Of a DNA stretch of 64,000 nt, positions 5,100-63,017 are shown piece after piece. Source of the DNA: a virus (Duplodnaviria; Heunggongvirae; Uroviricota; Caudoviricetes); the IMG/VR virus record IMGVR_UViG_3300045988_158233; one strand, 5' to 3'. The position numbers were made by a program, and so were the translations under genes. The notes under the pieces were generated by a model. The model ran no database searches. It was not told the origin of the DNA and was given only the letters and a program-made list of their open reading frames with translations. Each line of letters begins with the position of its first letter. Positions within the stretch are counted from its first letter, which is position 1.

Positions 5100-5180
5100 A
5101 AAATAAGCGTGGAGAACACCTCCACGCTTGATTCATTGGTGAAACAACTTTTCTTTTGCCAAACCACAAAAGAAAAACAC

Positions 5181-12491: not shown

Positions 12492-12566
12492 GATGGTGTA
12501 GCTCAGCGGTAGAGCAGTTGGCTGTTAACCAACTGGTCGGTGGTTCGAATCCACCCACCATCGCCA
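12492..12566 (+). tRNA. tRNA-Asn (GTT)
   Basis: Cloverleaf by eye: acceptor GATGGTG/CACCATC, anticodon loop CTGTTAA, T-loop TTCGAAT, 3' GCCA. Confidence 0.85.
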
Positions 12567-12571
12567 ATTTA

Positions 12572-12658
12572 GGAGAGTTAGTCCGTAGAGGTAGCGGGGT
12601 AGACTGTAAATCTACTGTCATTGCGACTCGGGTGGTTCGACTCCATCACTCCCCACCA
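12572..12658 (+). tRNA. tRNA-Tyr (GTA), class II
   Basis: Anticodon stem GTAGA/TCTAC with loop CTGTAAA, long variable arm, T-loop TTCGACT, 3' ACCA; one A-C mismatch in acceptor stem, D-arm imperfect. Confidence 0.65.
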
Positions 12659-12662
12659 AATT

Positions 12663-12738
12663 GCCGGTTTAGCTCAGTTGGTAGAGCGCCTGCCTTGTAA
12701 GCAGGATGTCAGCGGTTCGAGTCCGTTAACCGGCACCA
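12663..12738 (+). tRNA. tRNA-Thr (TGT)
   Basis: Acceptor GCCGGTT/AACCGGC, anticodon stem CCTGC/GCAGG with loop CTTGTAA, T-loop TTCGAGT, 3' ACCA. Confidence 0.85.
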
Positions 12739-12962
12739 ATACAACGATAAGATCATTACGGTTAATCGTCGTTCATGTGCACAATGACTGGTCGAAAGGT
12801 AGTGATCTTACCGTTGTGGTGGATTCGCAGACTGATGCGATAGCTTTCTTGGATGTTAGGGAAATGCGGCCGCAAATCTTCCCTTTCGCGAGCGGTGATC
12901 GTCCGTAGTCCTAATTGGCTGCACCGTATGCCGGAGATTCAGTACCGGCTATCACAACGGCC

Positions 12963-13049
12963 GGAGAGTAGGGAGCATGGTGCTCAAGCGGTCTTGAAAA
13001 CCGTCCCATTGCGCAAGCGATGATGGTTCGATTCCATTACTCTCCGCCA
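12963..13049 (+). tRNA. tRNA-Ser (TGA), class II
   Basis: Acceptor GGAGAGT/ACTCTCC perfect, anticodon loop CTTGAAA, long variable arm, T-loop TTCGATT, 3' GCCA. Confidence 0.75.
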
Positions 13050-15075: not shown

Positions 15076-15095
15076 TACTGTTTACTTATACAGTG
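15076..15095. promoter_or_regulatory. LexA box (SOS operator) upstream of integrase
   Basis: TACTGT-ttacttat-ACAGTG fits CTGT-N8-ACAG consensus; about 27 bp upstream of int start. Confidence 0.6.
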
Positions 15096-50860: not shown

Positions 50861-50921
50861 ACGCACGCGTGTGCGCACGCGCGAGGAAAAAATCGGCGCG
50901 GCGCTTGATTCAGGAGTTTAT

Positions 50922-51515
50922 ATGACGACGAAGACACCAGCCCGATCGCAAGCAAAAACTCGCAAAAAAGACAAAAACAAAAATTCTCCCCGCACCAATC
51001 CCACAACGCCTGTCGTAGAGTTCAACCCCCAGCTTAAAACCGTGAAAATCTTTAGTGATGGCTCTTGCCTCAAAAATCCGGGTGGCCCGGGCGGTTACGG
51101 TATCGTTCTCCAGTATCGTGGTGAGGAACGCGAGTTCTCAGATGGTTTTCATAGCACCACCAATAACCGCATGGAGATGATGGGGGCACTTATCGGGCTG
51201 GAGCGTTTGAAATATCCATGCAACGTTATTTTGTACTCTGATAGCCAGTATCTGAAAAACGGCATGACACAGTGGATGAAATGGTGGAAACGTAATGGAT
51301 GGATGACTTCTGATAAAAAACCGGTAAAGAATGTTGATCTGTGGAAACGTCTGGATGAGGCCGCAAGTCGACATAATGTTCGCTGGAAGTGGGTTAAAGG
51401 TCACGCCGGGCATCGTGAAAATGAAATATGTGATCGACTCGCGAAGATCGCAGCTTTTTCCGCAGCCGATACGCCTCACAAGAAAGACATTGGTTTTATT
51501 TACAACAAGTGGTAA
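50922..51515 (+). CDS. rnhA: ribonuclease HI
   Basis: [43 protein letters not shown] match RNase HI catalytic motifs; basic N-terminal extension. Confidence 0.8.
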
Positions 51516-54795: not shown

Positions 54796-56481
54796 ATGAA
54801 TACAGCCCTTTCCATCATCGACGATGCCAACTCAAACACTGCTATCGACTATCGGCAGGAAATGAACGTCATCCACGAAATTGTGGCCGAGTGCGAGAAA
54901 GAGATCGCCTTCATGTATCAGGTTCACGACTTCGTTTATGGCGACGAACGCCACAACATGATTAATCGCCTGCTGAGACTAAACCATCGACCAGATGAAG
55001 ATCGCTCGCGTTTAAATCGAGGTTGGTTGGATAAAGTCGATCTGGAATGGGTGAAACAGAATATTTGGGCCGAGTACTGGAGGAAGGTCACGGACATGAC
55101 TAACGTTTTGCTGATCATGCCAGCTTCCCGTCGAGATGAGTGGCGCGAGCAGTTTATAGAGGGCAAACAGGAAGTCATCAAAACTGACAGAACCGGCTAC
55201 CAGATGAAGGTTAAAGAGTTCGTTGGTGTACCGGAGTTCAAAGCAGAAACGGTCATACCCACGATGCTTAATTTGCTGAATGACAGGCACAAATATCTCT
55301 CTGAGCGCGTGTATGGCTTGTTTAAGGCGCTGAGTCCTGCGCACAAGACAAATAAGACAAACGGTTTCAGCGAGCGTCTGATAATCGCTGACTGCATTTC
55401 TGATTTCTGGCGGGACAGCGTTAGCGTGAACTATCGCAAAGAGGACTACATCGACGATCTGCGTGTCTTGCTTCATTTCTTCGCGCACAAAGAATTTATT
55501 ACCATCAACCGCACTGCTGAGGTGCTATCAGCTGCGTATCGGGCAAACGACTGCCAGACCGGTGACTGGATGAACGTCGATGGAAATCTGATGCGCGTGA
55601 AGATGTTCAAGAACGGCAACGTTCACTTTGAAATACATCCTGACGTGGCCTGGAAGTTGAATGAGGTGCTGGCTTACAGTATGCCTGCTGCAATTCCCGC
55701 GCCATGCCGAACTGCGCCAAAAACACGGGCACCAAAGCAGTTCGGGTTAATCCAGAAGACGATCTCCGTGCCGGTTCGCACTGCGCTTCGTGACGGGCGA
55801 TTTAGCAAAGACAAAGGCGTATGGTACTTCTCTGATTCAGCTCTCCAGAAGTCGCAGGTGGAAGAGCTTGAGCGCACACTGAGCTTCATTGGCGGCGTGC
55901 AGGAGAAAAAGCACTGGCAGTTCCCGTATGAGATCGGCCATACGCTAAATACGATTGTGGCTACCGGTTTAATACCGGATACAAAATCACACCAGTTCTA
56001 CCCTACCCCACGCTTGATTGCTGAGTACGTTGCCAGAGCCACTGAATTGAAGCCTGGTGAGAAGTTGTTGGAGCCTCAAGCCGGACGTGGGGATCTTCTG
56101 GCCTATATTAACGCCGATCTGGAAGATGTTACCTGCATAGAAATCGCACCTCTCTTCGCTGATATCCTGCGTGGAAAAGGGTATACGAACACGATTTGCT
56201 GCGACTTCATAAAGTGGTCTGAGGACAACGCAGGTTATCAGTTCGACAAAATCGTTATGAACCCGCCGTACTCGCTTGGTCGTCATAGAGAGCACACGCT
56301 GGCTGCGCTGGGGCATCTGAAAGTCGGCGGGCGTCTTGTAGCAGTATTGCCGGGCACTGCGCCAATACTGGACTGGATGACGATGGATAATTACGTTTAT
56401 GCCAGAGGGAAGTCGTTTACCAACGAGTTTGAAGACACAGGGATCACAGTCAGCGTATACGTTTTCAAACGCGTTAAATGA
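54796..56481 (+). CDS. DNA methyltransferase with ~380-aa N-terminal domain of unknown function
   Basis: C-terminal SAM motif LLEPQAGRGDL followed by catalytic VMNPPYS (amino-MTase). Confidence 0.65.
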   Translation: MNTALSIIDDANSNTAIDYRQEMNVIHEIVAECEKEIAFMYQVHDFVYGDERHNMINRLLRLNHRPDEDRSRLNRGWLDKVDLEWVKQNIWAEYWRKVTDMTNVLLIMPASRRDEWREQFIEGKQEVIKTDRTGYQMKVKEFVGVPEFKAETVIPTMLNLLNDRHKYLSERVYGLFKALSPAHKTNKTNGFSERLIIADCISDFWRDSVSVNYRKEDYIDDLRVLLHFFAHKEFITINRTAEVLSAAYRANDCQTGDWMNVDGNLMRVKMFKNGNVHFEIHPDVAWKLNEVLAYSMPAAIPAPCRTAPKTRAPKQFGLIQKTISVPVRTALRDGRFSKDKGVWYFSDSALQKSQVEELERTLSFIGGVQEKKHWQFPYEIGHTLNTIVATGLIPDTKSHQFYPTPRLIAEYVARATELKPGEKLLEPQAGRGDLLAYINADLEDVTCIEIAPLFADILRGKGYTNTICCDFIKWSEDNAGYQFDKIVMNPPYSLGRHREHTLAALGHLKVGGRLVAVLPGTAPILDWMTMDNYVYARGKSFTNEFEDTGITVSVYVFKRVK

Positions 56482-56501: not shown

Positions 56502-56542
56502 TTGTGTAAGAATGTAATAACTAAACGATAAGAGAAAAACAC

Positions 56543-57247
56543 ATGAACAACCTCCAGTTAGAGCATTTTAACGTCACAGGCCATTCTGATTTTCCTTTCA
56601 AGTTTACATTGAAAGGTTATGCAGAGGATGCGGTAGGCCAGATCATTATTGATAAAGGCATCGTTAAGTTTGAGGGGGATTTTGATGAATCCGCGAAAAC
56701 ATTCATAGACTTCGTTGCCAAACGTTGGAGCGAGCAATGGAAAGACCTGGAAAAGCGCGCTAATGAGTTTGATCGGTTCATGGATGCAATGGATACAGCA
56801 AAAGAGGCTCTTGCTGCCGGGACTCCGTTAGATCTGGAGTCACTTTTCAACGGCGAAGTGGCCTCTGCGATGTTCGCCACCATGTTCGCGGGTGAGTTCG
56901 TCCGCAGCGGTGCCAAAAACTACCTTGAGCTGGATTACAACGTCCCTGCAATTGGCGATTTCGTCGTTACCATCCAACGCAAAGAAGGTAAGACGCCAGG
57001 TGAACGCGTCGCAGAGCTTGAGGCCGTTGTGGATCAGCGTAACGGAGAGTGTGACCGTTTGATCAACGAGCTTCATGCACTTCGGGAAGAAAGAATATGC
57101 GCGGGTAGTAATACACGTAATGCAGCGGATATCTACTTCCAGTTAGTTGAGGAATGCCAGATTCCACCAGGTGGCTCTCTTGTCGATTACGTCAGACATT
57201 TAATGGCGGAAGTTAACTCCAGCCATAAAGATGGTGAGGTGCGCTGA
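56543..57247 (+). CDS. hypothetical protein
   Basis: 234-aa ORF, first of tightly packed operon. Confidence 0.45.
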   Translation: MNNLQLEHFNVTGHSDFPFKFTLKGYAEDAVGQIIIDKGIVKFEGDFDESAKTFIDFVAKRWSEQWKDLEKRANEFDRFMDAMDTAKEALAAGTPLDLESLFNGEVASAMFATMFAGEFVRSGAKNYLELDYNVPAIGDFVVTIQRKEGKTPGERVAELEAVVDQRNGECDRLINELHALREERICAGSNTRNAADIYFQLVEECQIPPGGSLVDYVRHLMAEVNSSHKDGEVR

Positions 57248-57627
57248 TGTTTGGCATTGATGCACAGCGTATAGCCGCTTTTGCAAAAAGTCCTCTTGAT
57301 AATCCCTTGTCTCGTAGTGAGCAAATGGCGCTGGCAAGGCTTTTTCTTCACATTCAAAAACAGGCAGACGTTTTCAATAACATGCCTGATCAACCTATTC
57401 TGGATGGTCACATCCAGATGGTCATTAACAGTCATGAGAAAGGCTGGGCTGCAATCGTCCCCTGCACAATTACATACAAGTTGGCGAAAGAGGTTCAAGA
57501 GTTTCGAAAAGCCAGTGTCGAATCGGAGTCTACCAAAGCCGCAATAAACACTCTTATTCGCATGGGGTTCACATGGACCGGTGGAGCCTACTGGCAAGCA
57601 CCTCAACCCATTTTATCCGGCAATTAG
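57247..57627 (+). CDS. hypothetical protein
   Basis: 126-aa ORF overlapping previous stop. Confidence 0.4.
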   Translation: MFGIDAQRIAAFAKSPLDNPLSRSEQMALARLFLHIQKQADVFNNMPDQPILDGHIQMVINSHEKGWAAIVPCTITYKLAKEVQEFRKASVESESTKAAINTLIRMGFTWTGGAYWQAPQPILSGN

Positions 57628-57765
57628 GCGCTACAAATCCTTCTGCATGAATAAATAAAGGCCATAACTTATGTCCTTAAATAAATTGTTTTCTACCTTT
57701 TCTTATTTGTGAAAATAAACCAGCACTTGGTAGTGCTTATGTAACAGCAAAGAAGAGAAAAACAC

Positions 57766-58221
57766 ATGAGTAACAAAATCGAAAATCCCGTAGTTCTCAT
57801 TCACAAGCGCGAGAACCACGACTCCTATGCGGTGGCGATCACCAATGGGAGTCACGATTTTTACGATGGCCTGCTAATGGCCTCAGTGTCGCCTGATGAG
57901 GCAGACAACTCTTTTGCCGTCTTCGCTATGGTTGGTTACTACATGGCTGCCGAAATTGAGAAGTTGCGGGCGCAGAGAGACGCATTAGCGGCGGAGAATG
58001 CAGCCCTGAAAGAATCTGAGCGAGCATTCGATGCGATGTGTGCCGAGGAACACGGAGATAATTGGGTTAGCGAATTAACGGAGACTCCAGCAACCGATGC
58101 TTTTCTGGCTGAAGTACGTGCGCAGGGCGTGGAGATGTTTGCTGAGTGCGCATACACACTTGAACATCATGATCACGCAGTAGCTTTTGCCGCTGAGCTT
58201 CGTACAGGAGCTAAACAGTGA
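57766..58221 (+). CDS. hypothetical protein
   Basis: 151-aa ORF. Confidence 0.45.
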   Translation: MSNKIENPVVLIHKRENHDSYAVAITNGSHDFYDGLLMASVSPDEADNSFAVFAMVGYYMAAEIEKLRAQRDALAAENAALKESERAFDAMCAEEHGDNWVSELTETPATDAFLAEVRAQGVEMFAECAYTLEHHDHAVAFAAELRTGAKQ

Positions 58222-58784
58222 ATGAGATTTACTACCTGACGTTACGTGAACGTTATTCACCAAAACCAGCGCCTAAATGCTCTGTTTGTGGCGAGGAAAT
58301 GTCAATACAGCGCATATCTGGAGCACATGTTGTTTATGCCTGTTCCGGTGAGGGTGATGACGGATATTTTAAGATAGGGCGTACTTTTGCAGACGAACAT
58401 TATGAAAAATCACGCGTAACAGTAGTTGATGATAGTGATCCCGATGTGATTGCACTGCTGGACGAACTGGATAAAAGACAGCAACACATCCGACGTCTTG
58501 AGCAGGAGAACGTAGAGATGGCCCTAACGCTTGAGAAACTGCGTGTTGAGCTGGAGACCGTTAAACAGCGGGAAAAGGATCTGTTTATGGAAAATGTTCG
58601 ACTTAAGTCAGGTATAGCAGGTCTGATACACCTCGGTATTCGATATGCGGATGTCGAAGTCATGAAAATAGCTGGAGATGCCCAGCTTTCTACTCCCTGT
58701 ACTGACAGCATCATAAACAGTATTGCATCAGGCGTTTTCACCAAAGAGGGTCAGCATGATGAGAACAGTAGAAGTTCGCGCTGA
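58218..58784 (+). CDS. hypothetical protein with zinc-ribbon-like motif and coiled coil
   Basis: CSVCGEE...YACSGEGDDG, heptad-rich middle. Confidence 0.45.
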   Translation: MNEIYYLTLRERYSPKPAPKCSVCGEEMSIQRISGAHVVYACSGEGDDGYFKIGRTFADEHYEKSRVTVVDDSDPDVIALLDELDKRQQHIRRLEQENVEMALTLEKLRVELETVKQREKDLFMENVRLKSGIAGLIHLGIRYADVEVMKIAGDAQLSTPCTDSIINSIASGVFTKEGQHDENSRSSR

Positions 58785-58944
58785 AGATGTAACCCCAGGT
58801 GATGTGGTCATAACATCTAAAGGCAAACGATGTGCGGTTAAATCTTTCTGGATGAACGGTGAAAAAGTGACTCTGTTCGGTACGGATGGTTCCGAAACTG
58901 ATTATGACTACGACGAATTGCTTGTTGTTGAGAGAGCCACCTAA
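58756..58944 (+). CDS. hypothetical small protein
   Basis: 62 aa from ATG 58756. Confidence 0.35.
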   Translation: MMRTVEVRAEDVTPGDVVITSKGKRCAVKSFWMNGEKVTLFGTDGSETDYDYDELLVVERAT

Positions 58945-59480
58945 TGACCACCTTTACCAAAGAACAGTTAATCTCCCATGCACGCGAAAGCGTTAGTTAT
59001 CTGGAAGACTTGAAAGGACGTGTTAGTAAAGAAGGAGCGGACTGCAAAGTTGTTCATGAGATGGTTGAACGAGATCTAAAACTGGCTCGAATTGCACTGA
59101 CCTCACTGGAGGCAGAGCCAGTGGCGTGGCTGGTAACACTCACAAAAAACGATCAGGAATCAGTCTCTATTATTTACCGTGACTGTGCAGAGAAAGATAC
59201 ATGGGTTCGGATACATGAGTCACTCGGTTCTGTCGCACATGTTGCCCCGCTTTACATGGCGCAGCCAGAACCGTCGAAGGAGGAGAAAGGACGTTCAGTC
59301 ATCCAGGGTAAAGCCGATAATTCACCATTGCCGCGCTACCAGGTTATCGAATTAACAATGCTGGTTAAACAATTGGTCAGCCAACTGAAAAAAGCAAAAC
59401 CTGATTGCAAATTACCGGATAGGGCGATGGATTATCTTTTGCGGAACGGACTGCTAAGTGTGGAGGATGCCTTACGATGA
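58944..59480 (+). CDS. hypothetical protein
   Basis: 178-aa ORF overlapping neighbours. Confidence 0.45.
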   Translation: MTTFTKEQLISHARESVSYLEDLKGRVSKEGADCKVVHEMVERDLKLARIALTSLEAEPVAWLVTLTKNDQESVSIIYRDCAEKDTWVRIHESLGSVAHVAPLYMAQPEPSKEEKGRSVIQGKADNSPLPRYQVIELTMLVKQLVSQLKKAKPDCKLPDRAMDYLLRNGLLSVEDALR

Positions 59481-60064
59481 TTGAAATGACAAAAGAAGAA
59501 CTAACACAGGCAACAAAGGATTACGGAAAAAAGCACATCGCACATCGTATGGCGAATGTGTTACTGGCCTTGTCTGAACAAAAGCCATCTGCGTTTGTAA
59601 TGAAAGATGATTTGGCCGATCCGGCAATTGTTTCGACTCCGGCATATTTAGATATTGAGGATGCGGAACAAAAAACGATTGGGGATATTGTCGCGCTTTA
59701 TGCCGATCCCTTTCCTGTCATCGGCGACACTACTGCTCTTGTGGACGATATTTTAAACATTCTCGCGCTTCTTGAGGCTGGCGATTGGTCAGAACATTGC
59801 ACTAAAACGGAGTTAGGCGGTCGGCTTGAAAGAGAGATTACACAACTTATTGGTGATGCCCAAAATGATTTGTCACCTGAGCATCTCCCCTGCGATGTAG
59901 TCCTTGTGCCAGGGATGAGGATACACGAAGGCGTCAGAACGAAAACATTATTAACCGCATTACAGAGAAGAGCCGAACTAAGCTCGCGGATAAAGTTGAT
60001 GCCATCCAAAATATTTGATGTCGTCAAATTTACGCCATCGCAACATACTGAGAGAGATAAATGA
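59477..60064 (+). CDS. hypothetical protein
   Basis: 195-aa ORF. Confidence 0.45.
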   Translation: MIEMTKEELTQATKDYGKKHIAHRMANVLLALSEQKPSAFVMKDDLADPAIVSTPAYLDIEDAEQKTIGDIVALYADPFPVIGDTTALVDDILNILALLEAGDWSEHCTKTELGGRLEREITQLIGDAQNDLSPEHLPCDVVLVPGMRIHEGVRTKTLLTALQRRAELSSRIKLMPSKIFDVVKFTPSQHTERDK

Positions 60065-60693
60065 GCACGGTAGCGAAAGATCTCACAGAAGATATTCTCA
60101 ATGAAATTATTGCTGGTGCAAATACCTCGCTTGAGCAACTTCTTGCGTTAGCACTGAGAGCCGAACGTCGAGACAGAAATCGTTTTTATGAACGATTACC
60201 AGGGAAACGACCAGATAGATCAGATGAAGAAGGTTGCGATATAGACTACATGGAGCCTTCAGAGATTTATCAACTTGGTAAAGATGACGGCTGGAACGCT
60301 TATCACGATGCTGTGATGAAGTTGGATGAAAAAGTTAAACCTCTTTCTCGACCGGTAGATCACGGTTTCCGCGATAACTGCGAATGCTCTAGTTGCCAGA
60401 CCACGGCCCGTATTTGTTCCGAATTGACAGATAAGTCCAGCCTAATCTACGAAGTTAATGTAGGCGGTAATACATGGGTCGAATGCACAAGAGCTGCATA
60501 CGTAAGAGCAAAAGACAAGGGTGAATTAACCAGAGTTGTTGCCCATCACCCAAATAATGAGCTTAAAGATCACCAGATTAGAGAACTGGTGAATGAGTTG
60601 CGGGATATTGCGGTTCAGTACCACGGAACGCAGCAATTGCGGGAGAAAATTGCCAGAGCAGTGAACAACTCAATTAGATCAGAAAGTATGTAG
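60061..60693 (+). CDS. hypothetical protein
   Basis: 210-aa ORF with CECSSC motif. Confidence 0.45.
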   Translation: MSTVAKDLTEDILNEIIAGANTSLEQLLALALRAERRDRNRFYERLPGKRPDRSDEEGCDIDYMEPSEIYQLGKDDGWNAYHDAVMKLDEKVKPLSRPVDHGFRDNCECSSCQTTARICSELTDKSSLIYEVNVGGNTWVECTRAAYVRAKDKGELTRVVAHHPNNELKDHQIRELVNELRDIAVQYHGTQQLREKIARAVNNSIRSESM

Positions 60694-60900
60694 TCAATAC
60701 AATAAAATGGCCCCATTTGGATGGGGCCGGTAACAACTAGCATTATGGGCGCTGGTTGACGTACTCAATGATCGCTTCGATGATTGCGAACATAGGCGGC
60801 ACGATTTTGAAAAGTAAGTTAAGCACTATAGGCCTCACTTAGTTTTATCGCACCTAGCTGCAAATACCTTTGAGCTTGCCTTTGCAGTTGCAATATCTGT

Positions 60901-61093
60901 AGTCGCCAGATACTTACGGCACGATTTCGAGTTAAGGTAAGGTTTTAGAGTCACCAAAAACCTGGACTTAAATCTTCTTTGAGAACAACGATGTTTGGTA
61001 AATGGTCATTATTACCTAGCATGACGGCTCAACGTTTCTTGATGAATCCAGTACATTCGGTTAATCTTAGCTCAGTCGCCAGATACTTATGGC
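60901..61093. repeat. 20-bp direct repeat pair in non-coding region
   Basis: agtcgccagatacttacggc (60901..60920) and agtcgccagatacttatggc (61074..61093), 173 bp apart. Confidence 0.6.
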
Positions 61094-61126
61094 TCAGGAA
61101 CAGAGGCGCAAACTCTGTTTCCTTTT

Positions 61127-61160
61127 AAAAAGCCCAGCCTAGTCAACTGGGCTTTTTTAA
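61127..61160. terminator. bidirectional terminator-like hairpin
   Basis: aaaaagcccag-cctagtcaa-ctgggctttttt. Confidence 0.55.
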
Positions 61161-61453
61161 TGTCCGTTTTTAACCAAATGTACCCACAATACCGCAACAT
61201 CAGTGTCTTGCGAATTAAGATAGGATTTATAGAGACTATGTGCAAGTGCATAACTTTGTGGATAACTCGTAAAGGAAAAAGTGGTTTCCGCGGACATTAG
61301 TTCAGACAAGGAGTCTGGGAAAGTCAATGGGAAGTAAAAATTTGTTAAAAATAACGTTTGTTGGAATTGTATATATTTATGCCTTTCAATAGTTAGCATC
61401 TTATTAACATCTTTTTTAAGAGATAGAGTTCAAAAATATATAGCTTCAACATA

Positions 61454-61473
61454 TACTGTATGCATATACAGCA
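61454..61473. promoter_or_regulatory. LexA box upstream of umuD-prime-like gene
   Basis: tACTGTatgcatatACAGca = CTGT-N8-ACAG; 16 bp upstream of ATG, RBS aagagg between. Confidence 0.6.
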
Positions 61474-61489
61474 TTAAGAGGCGAGTATT

Positions 61490-61879
61490 ATGGGCTTCCC
61501 TTCTCCTGCGGCGGATTATGCTGAGAGCCGTATTTCTCTTGATCAGCAGATAATTAGACATCCTTCAGCGACCTACTTCATGAGGGCGGCTGATAGTCAT
61601 CATCGTGAGGGAATATTGCAGGGTGCATTGCTGGTGGTCGATTCCTCACTGACTCCTGTTGATGGATCTCTTCTTGTATGTGCTCTGGATGGGGAATATC
61701 GCGTAAAAAGATACCGGAAGTATCCACGTCAGCATCTGGAGGATTTAAGAACTGGTAAGAAGGAAGCATTGCCAAAGGATGATGATGGATGCACGGGCAG
61801 CAATGCCGTGTTTGGTGTGATCACTCACATTATCAACGACGCAAGAAGTGGCGAGTTTGATGATTGTCCTGTGATGTAG
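61490..61879 (+). CDS. UmuD-prime-like (HumD-like) S24 peptidase-family protein lacking the N-terminal arm
   Basis: Begins MGFPSPAADY (matches UmuD sequence from the Cys24-Gly25 cleavage site onward), retains DS (Ser nucleophile region) and VKR (Lys) positions. Confidence 0.7.
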   Translation: MGFPSPAADYAESRISLDQQIIRHPSATYFMRAADSHHREGILQGALLVVDSSLTPVDGSLLVCALDGEYRVKRYRKYPRQHLEDLRTGKKEALPKDDDGCTGSNAVFGVITHIINDARSGEFDDCPVM

Positions 61880-61916: not shown

Positions 61917-63017
61917 TCACACTGCGCGGAATGCGATTTCGCCAGGTATTACTTCACCTTGCCAATACATTTGGGCAGCAACGCGATCTGCGAGGTCACG
62001 ATAAATAGCCGTAAATTCGCTATCTGGACGACTAATAACGGTTGGTGTTCCGTTATCCAGATCTTCACGAAGAGAGATATGAAGTGGCATTTGGCCTAAC
62101 AACTGCGTGTTGTATTTCTCGGCCAGTTTCTGTGCGCCACCGGTGCCAAAAATTGGCTCGTGATGACCGCAGTTACTGCAAATATGCACACTCATGTTTT
62201 CGACGATACCTAGTACCGGCACTTCGACTTTTTCGAACATCACAATGCCTTTCTTCGCATCGATCAGCGCGATGTCTTGCGGCGTAGTTACCACAACCGC
62301 ACCAGTTACAGGAATGTTCTGCGCCAGCGTCAATTGAATATCACCAGTGCCCGGCGGCATATCGAGAACGAGATAGTCCAGATCAGGCCACAGTGTTTCC
62401 TGCAACATCTGCATCAGCGCCTTGCTGGCCATCGGTCCACGCCACACCATTGCATTGTCGTCGGTGACCAGATAACCAATAGAGTTGGTTGCCAGGCCAT
62501 GAGACATGATAGGTGCCATGTGAGTACCGTCCGGTGAGGTTGGACGTTGGTTTTCCGCGCCCAGCATGGTTGGAATTGATGGACCATAGATATCGGCATC
62601 CAAAATACCAACTTTCGCACCTTCAGCAGCCAAAGCCAGTGCCAAGTTTACTGCTGTGGACGATTTGCCTACACCGCCCTTGCCTGAGCTTACGGCGATA
62701 ATATTCTTAACACCATTAATGCCTGGTTGGTTTTTGACGCGCTTAAGCGTGGCAATGTTGTACGACAGCTTCCAGTCAATAGCCTTTGCGCCAGTGATAC
62801 GGAGCAGATCACCACTACATTGCTCTTTCAGGTCTTCAAAAGGCTTATTCCACACGAAAGGCATGATTAGTTCGACATGCAGTGTGTCATCCATCAACGC
62901 AACATGGTGTAACGCTTTAAGCGTAGTCAGGTTGTGTTTCAGGGTTGGGTGCTGAAAATTAGCCAGCGTACCGGCTACCATTGCTCTCAGGGCATCCGGC
63001 GATTTGGACTCGCTCAT
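61917..63017 (-). CDS. apbC: iron-sulfur cluster carrier ATPase Mrp/ApbC
   Basis: Full-length match by eye to E. coli Mrp: deviant Walker A SGKGGVGKSST, CSNCGHH motif. Confidence 0.9.
   Translation of the reverse strand: MSESKSPDALRAMVAGTLANFQHPTLKHNLTTLKALHHVALMDDTLHVELIMPFVWNKPFEDLKEQCSGDLLRITGAKAIDWKLSYNIATLKRVKNQPGINGVKNIIAVSSGKGGVGKSSTAVNLALALAAEGAKVGILDADIYGPSIPTMLGAENQRPTSPDGTHMAPIMSHGLATNSIGYLVTDDNAMVWRGPMASKALMQMLQETLWPDLDYLVLDMPPGTGDIQLTLAQNIPVTGAVVVTTPQDIALIDAKKGIVMFEKVEVPVLGIVENMSVHICSNCGHHEPIFGTGGAQKLAEKYNTQLLGQMPLHISLREDLDNGTPTVISRPDSEFTAIYRDLADRVAAQMYWQGEVIPGEIAFRAV

Follow-up and report, generated by a model that had tools for sequence, protein, structure and literature searches.

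An ea-like accessory gene block at the hypervariable slot of an SSU5-like phage-plasmid of Escherichia coli

Introduction

What could a compact run of eight small genes, lodged between a DNA methyltransferase gene and humD, do for the element that carries it? The question is raised by positions 56543–60693 of a 64,000-nucleotide stretch of viral DNA (IMG/VR record IMGVR_UViG_3300045988_158233; the whole stretch is called the window hereafter, and coordinates refer to it). An original prediction, made from the letters alone, had described the run as overlapping genes without recognisable domains, one of them with a zinc-ribbon-like motif and a coiled coil, and had proposed host takeover or anti-defence as their role. 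The window is an SSU5-like phage-plasmid of Escherichia coli, and the block is, by the homology of its products, the phage-plasmid counterpart of the early accessory “ea” (exo-xis) region of phages lambda and P22.

Results

Eight genes in two overlapping groups

Eight open reading frames (ORFs; O1–O8) were confirmed at the predicted place, all on the plus strand. Over its 4.15 kb, the block matches a circular E. coli plasmid of 115.7 kb (NZ_JBWDPU010000001.1) with 100% identity, and RefSeq calls the same eight genes there; public annotation already holds them, as “hypothetical” and “ead/Ea22-like”. The features of the block are as follows.

O1: 56543–57247, plus strand, 234 amino acids (aa); PHROG 8364, E = 8e-148.
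O2: 57247–57627, plus strand, 126 aa; PHROG 10451, E = 3e-82; overlaps the O1 stop by 1 nucleotide (nt).
Spacer between O2 and O3: 57628–57765, no strand, 138 bp; blastn matches break repeatedly at 57718 and 57766.
O3: 57766–58221, plus strand, 151 aa; PHROGs 492, 614, 368, 14548 and 10746, the set common to P22 EaE and HK446 gp27 (Oad2).
O4: 58218–58784, plus strand, 188 aa, GTG start; Pfam PF13935; PHROGs 368, 250, 38306, 34708, 11761 and 1138.
O5: 58756–58944, plus strand, 62 aa; PHROG 15283, E = 7e-42; overlaps O4 by 29 nt.
O6: 58944–59480, plus strand, 178 aa, putatively EaA-like; PHROGs 660, 60, 924 and 3323, shared with P22 EaA.
O7: 59477–60064, plus strand, 195 aa, mosaic; PHROGs 19524 and 20174; tblastn/blastn breakpoints at 59729 and 59862.
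O8: 60061–60693, plus strand, 210 aa, mosaic; PHROGs 21749 and 20174.

Coding density across the block is 96.7%. The overlap of start and stop codons that had been claimed for the whole run holds at six of the seven junctions: O1/O2 (1 nt, TGATG), O3/O4 (4 nt, GTGA), O4/O5 (29 nt), O5/O6 (1 nt, TAATG), O6/O7 (4 nt, ATGA) and O7/O8 (4 nt, ATGA). It does not hold at O2/O3; because the 138-bp spacer parts these two genes, the layout is not a single overlapping run but two blocks, O1–O2 with two genes and O3–O8 with six. Purine-rich, Shine-Dalgarno-like sequences precede all eight genes. The start of O5 is most likely the ATG at 58756, with AAAGAGGG before it, and not the TTG given in the program-made list of ORFs.

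Every one of the eight genes matches a PHROG phage family, five of them full-length at E ≤ 1e-42, and the pairwise ratio of nonsynonymous to synonymous substitutions (dN/dS) versus relatives ranged between 0.09 and 0.56 in all eight, wherever a comparator exists. The genes were therefore judged to be real, and all eight are under purifying selection. An all-versus-all BLASTP search for paralogy among the eight proteins returned nothing significant (best E = 0.13, O3 versus O4 at a TP.TD motif).

O4 and O3 link the block to the ea region

P22, lambda and HK446 were used as comparison genomes for the ea region. The notion that the block lacks recognisable domains had to be abandoned: O4, which carries both the CxxC...H...C motif and the coiled coil, matches Pfam Ead_Ea22 (PF13935) over aa 3–147 with 90.7 bits (cutoff 27; E = 1.6e-25), and O3, O6, O2 and O1 likewise have families or modules in common with P22 EaE, P22 EaA and Ea22-type proteins. 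As its PHROG set is, in addition, that of lambda Ea22 and P22 EaD, O4 can be assigned to the Ead/Ea22 family. Its N-terminus is that of Ea22 and is followed by an insertion of ∼45 aa with the CxxC...H...C motif, by the coiled coil conserved in Ea22, and by a C-terminal tail; the coiled coil (aa 77–118) is 57–63% identical to those of lambda ea22 and P22 eaD. With lambda Ea22, O4 shares the N-terminal “M.EI...L.RE”, the coil “ALLDE....QQ.I.R..QEN...ALT..KLRVELE” and the tripartite build of variable N-terminal part, coil and variable C-terminal part (PMC10834534). It differs from that protein by the ∼45-aa insertion and by an unrelated C-terminal tail, which gave no alignment to the solved lambda Ea22 C-terminal domain (CTD) past aa 118 and no PDB sequence match. 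CTD variability is a recognised trait of the Ea22 family (PMC10834534). Lambda Ea22 itself is expressed early from pL, forms a tetramer, has a variable CTD and favours lysogeny (PMC7093339, PMC10834534).

O3 can likewise be placed in the EaE/Oad2 family. BLASTP aligned it with P22 EaE (46% identity over 85 aa, E = 4e-19) and with Oad2 (40% over 78 aa, E = 6e-10), and hhalign aligned its aa 63–151 with Oad2 56–175 (probability 98.2%, E = 4.5e-14). A sister allele of O3, from the slot of another element (locus L015), shares 47% identity with Oad2 across 123 aa (E = 7e-30). The alignments within the family share the coiled coil, ETPATDAFLAE(V/M)RAQ and a C-terminal (E/Q)LR(K/T)G tail. In O3, an N-terminal domain of its own (aa 1–62) precedes the coiled coil and the “ETPATDAFLAEVRAQGV” motif, after which a hypervariable segment leads to an “ELR(T/K)G..Q” tail. 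Among its alleles, N-terminal domain and coil are nearly invariant, and the segment from AQGV to the LRKG tail is swapped wholesale. Oad2 has the same PHROG set and the same succession of coiled coil, ETPATDAFLAEVRAQ motif, variable segment and “LRKG..Q” tail, and both proteins are encoded in hypervariable early accessory regions. HK446 gp27 (Oad2) binds the tetramer of P2 OLD and prevents its activation as a tRNase, and Oad2 has been related to P22 EaE, sometimes fused to EaD/Ea22 (bioRxiv 10.64898/2026.07.10.737580). Ea22-type fusions occur in both lineages; on the side of O3, protein P0338 joins aa 1–98 of O3 to aa 53–188 of O4.

A fusion also connects O4 with O5. At locus L011 (IMG/VR 2740892439_000007), the two genes form one in-frame ORF of 241 aa, apparently the result of a 1-nt deletion in a G-run, which explains the arrangement best. 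Programmed frameshifting at the 29-nt O4/O5 overlap was considered as well and rejected, as it would require a +1 shift and a slippery site is absent.

The order O3-O4-O5-O6 parallels P22 eaE-eaD-eaI-eaA, with O5 in the position of eaI. The P22 ea region (eaE-eaF-eaD-eaI-eaA-eaG-eaC, from abc2 to xis) is, like the block, a tight, co-directional array of accessory genes, non-essential in P22 and probably so in the block, and the correspondences extend from O3 (EaE) and O4 (EaD, through its coiled coil and PHROGs) to, more tentatively, O6 and O2, which partly resemble EaA in their PHROGs and N-terminus. The N-termini of O2 and EaA both match PHROG 10451, and the one direct tblastn match to P22 eaA is with aa 1–34 of O2 (56% identity); neither O2 nor O6 has the central domain of EaA. 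The two regions differ in their setting, the block residing in a plasmid-prophage of ∼110 kb between a DUF4942 methyltransferase gene and humD, and the P22 region between recombination genes and xis-int. They also differ in content: EaF, EaG, EaC and EaI are without homologues among O1–O8 (tblastn; no common PHROG), and O1, O5, O7 and O8 are without a P22 counterpart. The homology is partial and at the level of modules.

A conserved pair followed by a hypervariable slot

A comparison with relatives, which the original prediction had called for to separate variable from conserved members, drew a sharp line through the block. It was based on 80 IMG/VR loci fetched with O1, plus annotated relatives; architectures were counted in 29 loci, with protein clusters defined at ≥70% identity and 80% coverage. 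O1 and O2 were conserved and O3–O8 variable: the interval from O2 to humD ranged between 2.3 and 6.6 kb and held 23 architectures and 59 protein clusters. The O3 cluster was present in 25/29 loci, that of O5 in 21/29, of O8 in 12/29 and of O4 in 9/29; O6 and O7 occurred in 2/29 each, namely in the window and its identical copy. Of the 990 E. coli genomes with any match, only 16 covered 80% or more of the block.

The unit of methyltransferase, O1 and O2 is present in every SSU5-like locus, with 95–99% protein identity among E. coli elements and 65–77% to SSU5, and O2 itself is kept at 94–98% identity in E. coli relatives. O1–O2 is therefore a conserved backbone, fixed behind the DUF4942 methyltransferase gene. 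O1 combines an N-terminal domain specific to the SSU5 group (aa 1–∼150) with a coiled coil and an Ea22-type C-terminal module (“...ERDALREE...SNTRAAADIYFQLVEECQIPPGGSLV.YV”), and its dN/dS is 0.09–0.14. Homologues of O1 were found only on Enterobacteriaceae phage-plasmid contigs of ∼100–115 kb; its C-terminal 80 residues also occur inside Ead/Ea22-type proteins of 40–50-kb lambdoid phages. In protein P0089, the N-terminal domain of O1 is fused to an EaE-type ETPATDAFLAEV tail.

When the block was compared with all loci by blastn, the matches ended at sharply recurrent breakpoints, several of them inside genes beside linker motifs. Breakpoints 57718 and 57766 fall into the spacer, the insertion point of extra cassettes in relatives (HD_4 and phiTE_072 genes); a 64-bp stretch at 57655–57718 is duplicated at the cassette borders, with second copies in L005, L030, L033, L034 and L040. 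Breakpoint 58137 corresponds to aa 124 of O3, just past ETPATDAFLAEVRAQG, 58548 lies in the coiled coil of O4, 58960 at the O5/O6 junction, and 59120 at aa 59 of O6, past LEAEPVAW; further ones are at 59729 and 59862 in O7 and at 60352 and 60671 in O8. As these breakpoints recur within genes, reassortment shuffles not only whole genes but also modules within them. The proteins are accordingly assembled from short interchangeable modules, that is, leader helices, coiled coils, linkers (ETPATDAFLAEVRAQ, LEAEPVAW) and variable heads or tails, which homologous recombination with other phage-plasmids and lambdoid prophages reassorts at recurrent joints.

The last three genes illustrate this construction. 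O6 opens with an N-terminal leader module (“TKEQL...LARIAL.SLEAEPVAW”), continues with a middle segment and closes with a C-terminal module that Stx phages also have; in Stx1 phage H19J this module makes up the end of orf688 (94.9% nt identity) and lies 1.5 kb upstream of xis-int. Other relatives conserve only aa 1–61 of O6; L001 and L024 alone have the full length, the exact combination being rare. Aa 1–81 of O7 were found only in the window and near-identical copies, aa 82–129 are a module that, in other relatives, serves as the N-terminal part of one 284-aa gene, and aa 130–195 make up the tail. In phages Cyrano and PhiR41_1, aa 82–129 of O7 plus aa 83–206 of O8 are that one gene, which a replacement of ∼490 bp in the window splits into O7 and O8.

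O8 begins with an N-terminus of its own (aa 1–∼82), followed by a Cys module (“PVDHGFRDNCECSSCQTTARICSEL”), a small α/β unit (aa ∼127–162) and a last module of ∼40 residues (“KDHQIRELVNELRDIAV.YHGTQQLRE.IAR”), which is widespread and common to many DUF551 prophage proteins. Most of its 413 homologues align only at aa ∼167–205, many of those carrying PF04448, and the last module and the Cys module are found in hundreds of prophage proteins of enterobacteria, many of them DUF551-bearing. Proteins of this kind include “Ea22_V2”, a DUF551-bearing variant of Ea22, and E. coli YfdS, both named in PMC10834534; they share with O8 “KDHQIRELVNELRDIAV.YHGTQQLRE.IAR” and “P.DHG.R..CECS.C..TARIC.EL”, and with O6 the “LARIALASLEAEPVAW” leader. 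What sets the block apart from them is the DUF551 domain itself, which Pfam detected in none of O1–O8 at E ≤ 0.1, so that only the flanking modules are shared; in relatives, DUF551 genes replace O6 and O7.

Other genes occupy the slot in relatives. They encode HD_4 proteins, phiTE_072-family proteins, a ClpX-type zinc finger protein, DUF551 and DUF7446 proteins and a toprim protein (for example, L005 4205–5385 and 8422–8946, L003 6500–6823, and L004 10254–10895). The HD_4 protein has an alarmone-hydrolase-like domain, and the ClpX C4 zinc finger resides in a small protein. This cargo plausibly represents further candidate genes for modulating the host or its defences.

Searches for a known function

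Neither a structural nor a replication nor a known defence protein was matched by O1–O8 in Pfam, NCBIfam, PHROGs or PADLOC, or by O1–O4 and O6–O8 among PDB sequences. NCBIfam gave no match at all for the eight; PADLOC-DB gave none either, its methyltransferase models matching only the methyltransferase upstream; and the PDB sequence search (O1–O4, O6–O8) yielded nothing below E = 0.6. Structure prediction followed by Foldseek, as had been suggested for each gene, was run for O1 and O8. AlphaFold2 modelled O1 from a 20-sequence alignment with a predicted local distance difference test score (pLDDT) of 52 and a predicted template modelling score (pTM) of 0.28, and O8 from a 40-sequence alignment with a pLDDT of 55 and a pTM of 0.25, only aa ∼127–162 of O8 being confident (pLDDT ∼87–90). 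Foldseek against BFVD found no match for these two models at E ≤ 0.001, the models being too poor to interpret.

Discussion

A probable role in acting on the host or its defences

Kinship with the ea region, modular build and position in a hypervariable slot lead us to regard as probable, as an explanation of the whole, that the block is a modular ea/exo-xis counterpart whose products act on the host or its defences. Hypervariability together with purifying selection, module swapping at linkers and host-acting cargo is the signature to be expected of genes engaged in an arms race. The products would probably be non-essential proteins that oligomerise through their coiled coils and bind particular host or defence proteins with their variable modules. 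Because O3 belongs to the EaE/Oad2 family, it would most likely block the activation of an abortive-infection nuclease of the OLD type (ABC-ATPase/TOPRIM) or of a related target. O4 would most likely bias the element between plasmid-prophage maintenance and lytic growth. The O3-O4 and O4-O5 fusions in relatives suggest that O3, O4 and O5 act together and may physically interact.

The anti-defence role proposed in the original prediction thereby fares better than the argument it was built on. The supposed lack of domains was wrong as a basis; the block is an accessory one in a hypervariable slot, and the homology of O3 to Oad2, an inhibitor of OLD, lends the idea indirect support. That the block acts on the host or host defences is thus probable by analogy with its homologues.

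Several points weigh against this reading. The homology between O3 and Oad2 is confined to the part from the coiled coil to the C-terminus (only 40% identity over 78 aa, compared with 47% over 123 aa for the sister allele), and the N-terminal domains are unrelated and do not align. Specificity within the family is narrow: the Oad2 homologue of HK75, despite 54% identity, does not inhibit OLD (bioRxiv 10.64898/2026.07.10.737580), and for this reason the target cannot be predicted from membership in the EaE/Oad2 family. Lambda Ea22, the sole experimentally studied homologue of O4, is a modest pro-lysogenic modulator and not an anti-defence protein (PMC7093339, PMC10834534). “Unknown function” is the PHROGs label of every matching family, both AlphaFold2 models are of low confidence (pLDDT 52 and 55) and give no structural support, and the surroundings of the block are depleted of sigma-70-like promoter matches.

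Alternative explanations

The pro-lysogenic effects of lambda Ea22 are also the only experimental data on the Ea22 family (PMC7093339, PMC10834534), and O4 is a true member of it by homology; in the exo-xis region of lambda, Ea22 is pro-lysogenic, and Orf60a, Orf61 and Orf63 are pro-lytic. The proteins might therefore be developmental tuners rather than anti-defence proteins, adjusting the balance between maintenance and lytic growth, or the stress response, through host physiology, and the LexA-controlled humD gene adjoining the block would fit such a role. The extreme diversity of alleles and architectures is, however, better explained by an arms race than by a regulatory circuit, the C-terminal part of O4 is unrelated to the CTD of lambda Ea22, and Oad2, a member of the EaE family, has direct anti-defence activity. 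We consider developmental tuning the less likely account, though one to be taken seriously; the two readings are mutually compatible.

Prophage and phage-plasmid hotspots are frequent carriers of cargo that defends the lysogen. The slot is such a variable hotspot in a temperate element, and toprim-domain and HD-domain proteins are found in it in relatives, so the block might be expressed by the plasmid-prophage to exclude superinfecting phages or competing elements. Against this, none of the eight proteins matches PADLOC or has a recognisable enzymatic effector domain, and the homologous genes of lambda and P22 are transcribed early in the lytic cycle from pL and are not morons expressed in the lysogen, which makes the proposal improbable. 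Still less credit is due to the view that the genes are dispensable recombination debris, functionless fragments of lambdoid genes that are open only through recent acquisition. Sub-genic mosaicism, split and fused forms (O7/O8 versus the single 284-aa gene), pseudogenised DUF551 fragments in relatives and the rarity of the O6 and O7 combinations would be consistent with decay; dN/dS values of 0.09–0.56 in every gene, intact start/stop overlaps and Shine-Dalgarno sites, and the conservation of modules across elements of Escherichia, Salmonella, Citrobacter and Klebsiella speak against it. The block further stands at the end of a long run of co-directional genes for DNA metabolism (thymidylate synthase, dihydrofolate reductase, exonuclease, Dam, RNase H), which could point to structural proteins or to proteins of phage DNA replication or recombination; homology to known structural or replication proteins is also what the original prediction had named as its refutation. 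Given that no homology to such families was found (Pfam, NCBIfam, PHROGs, PDB sequences) and that most of the members are missing in many viable relatives, this is hardly credible, and the original prediction is not refuted on that ground.

A tRNA cluster and a broader proposal

The window also contains four tRNA genes in a cluster at 12492–13049: Asn(GUU), Tyr(GUA), Thr(UGU) and Ser(UGA). The tRNA-Thr(UGU) is of a phage type: among the matches inspected, copies with 97–100% identity were found only on plasmids of ∼76–110 kb, and the chromosomal matches shown reached at most ∼77% identity, to tRNA-Ala. OLD is reported to cut the tRNA-Thr(UGU) of the host, and infection to be rescued by viral tRNAs of this type (bioRxiv 10.64898/2026.07.10.737580). 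The element may therefore possess two layers of protection against tRNA-cleaving defences, of which tRNA-Thr(UGU) would be one.

A more far-reaching version of the anti-defence reading, which we regard as doubtful, would turn the whole slot into a combinatorial anti-immunity toolkit. EaE, Ea22 and EaA coiled-coil scaffolds would then carry swappable recognition modules, each directed against a different abortive-infection sensor or nuclease (such as members of the ABC-ATPase/TOPRIM families OLD, Gabija, PARIS or Septu, or retron effectors); O3, O4 and O5 would form one hetero-oligomeric inhibitor, new specificities would arise by recombination at the linkers, and tRNA-Thr(UGU) would counter the same tRNases as a second layer.

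No new kind of system is revealed here; what has been found is a lambdoid ea/exo-xis module in an SSU5-like phage-plasmid. Such elements are frequently carried by clinical E. coli, Shigella and Salmonella, and a survey of the group with DefenseFinder reported very few anti-defence genes (bioRxiv 10.1101/2025.09.12.675607). A hypervariable slot of lambda/P22-type ea genes, EaE/Oad2 alleles among them, is the probable seat of an unrecognised repertoire for counter-defence or host modulation. Ea22, EaD and SSU5 are not mentioned in the accessory-gene screen of Silas et al. (bioRxiv 10.1101/2023.04.06.535777). For the target specificity of EaE/Oad2 and Ea22 proteins, the slot offers a natural library of modules, with 59 protein clusters from 29 loci and defined joints.

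Additional features of the element

Flanking genes

The nearest phages are the SSU5-like phage-plasmids Cyrano, PhiR41_1 and CMS-2020a (∼108 kb), SSU5 itself being more distant. Genes for thymidylate synthase, dfrA51, exonuclease, Dam, RNase H, TerB/TciA-like proteins and the DUF4942 methyltransferase flank the block on its 5′ side, and humD, apbC and metG on its 3′ side. The two genes that anchor the slot, and a hairpin beyond O8, are the following.

Upstream anchor: 54796–56481, plus strand, DUF4942 and N6-adenine DNA methyltransferase, 561 aa; Pfam DUF4942, 73.9 bits; PHROG 6263 “DNA methyltransferase”, E = 9e-300.
Hairpin: 60709–60728, no strand, G+C-rich, GGCCCCATTTGGATGGGGCC; directly 3′ of O8; T-rich tail on the minus strand, no T-run on the plus strand.
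Downstream anchor: 61490–61879, plus strand, humD, UmuD′-like S24 peptidase; Pfam Peptidase_S24; RefSeq “HumD family”.

The methyltransferase gene lies immediately upstream of O1, as had been stated. All SSU5-like relatives have it (80–100% identity in loci L011–L048), outside the variable block. The possibility that humD anchors a hotspot for Ea22 proteins shared with P1/D6-type phage-plasmids was rejected, as the ea-like arrays of D6 are not beside humD. A perfect LexA/SOS box (TACTGTATGCATATACAG) is located at 61454–61471, 19 nt 5′ of the humD start, and a second, near-consensus box at 15076–15095; four LexA matches were seen in total versus 0.33 expected by chance.

Signals in and around the block

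The spacer between O2 and O3 ends in the leader AGAGAAAAACAC, which continues into the ATG of O3; an identical 16-nt leader precedes O1. The underlying start leader, A(G/A)(A/G)GAAAAACACATGA, occurs seven times in the window versus 0.09 times expected, namely at 56531–56546 and 57754–57769, the exact copies before O1 and O3, and at 5169, 20777, 29597, 31204 and 7496 (minus strand). About 45 nt 5′ of the leader, a motif “TACTTACTTA” is common to two of the sites (29.6 and 56.5 kb). The start leader could be a promoter or leader signal specific to the element.

A scan for sigma-70 promoters did not reveal a convincing one for O1–O2 or for the O3–O8 sub-block. Matches to the sigma-70 consensus were strongly depleted relative to shuffled sequence, with 13 versus 29.5 ± 4.7 at 34–53.5 kb and 4 versus 16.6 ± 3.2 at 53–62 kb. 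Such depletion across 34000–62000 suggests long transcription units or promoters of a type other than sigma-70. The closest canonical terminator for the plus strand is a bidirectional one at 61124–61160. A search of Rfam with the whole window, and at E ≤ 1 with 56.4–61.9 kb, returned only tRNAs and one sub-threshold match, and no RNA in or beside the block. The ∼800 bp from O8 to humD (60694–61489) are without an annotated gene, parts of them being conserved in many relatives, and contain direct repeats of 20 nt (at 60901 and 61074) and of 14 nt (at 60797 and 60917); this may be an unrecognised RNA or regulatory region.

Further along, apbC occupies 61917–63017 onward, with metG next to it on the identical plasmid; both names are those of host housekeeping genes. 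On the same plasmid, RefSeq flags the RNase HI gene (50871–51515 of the window) as frameshifted.

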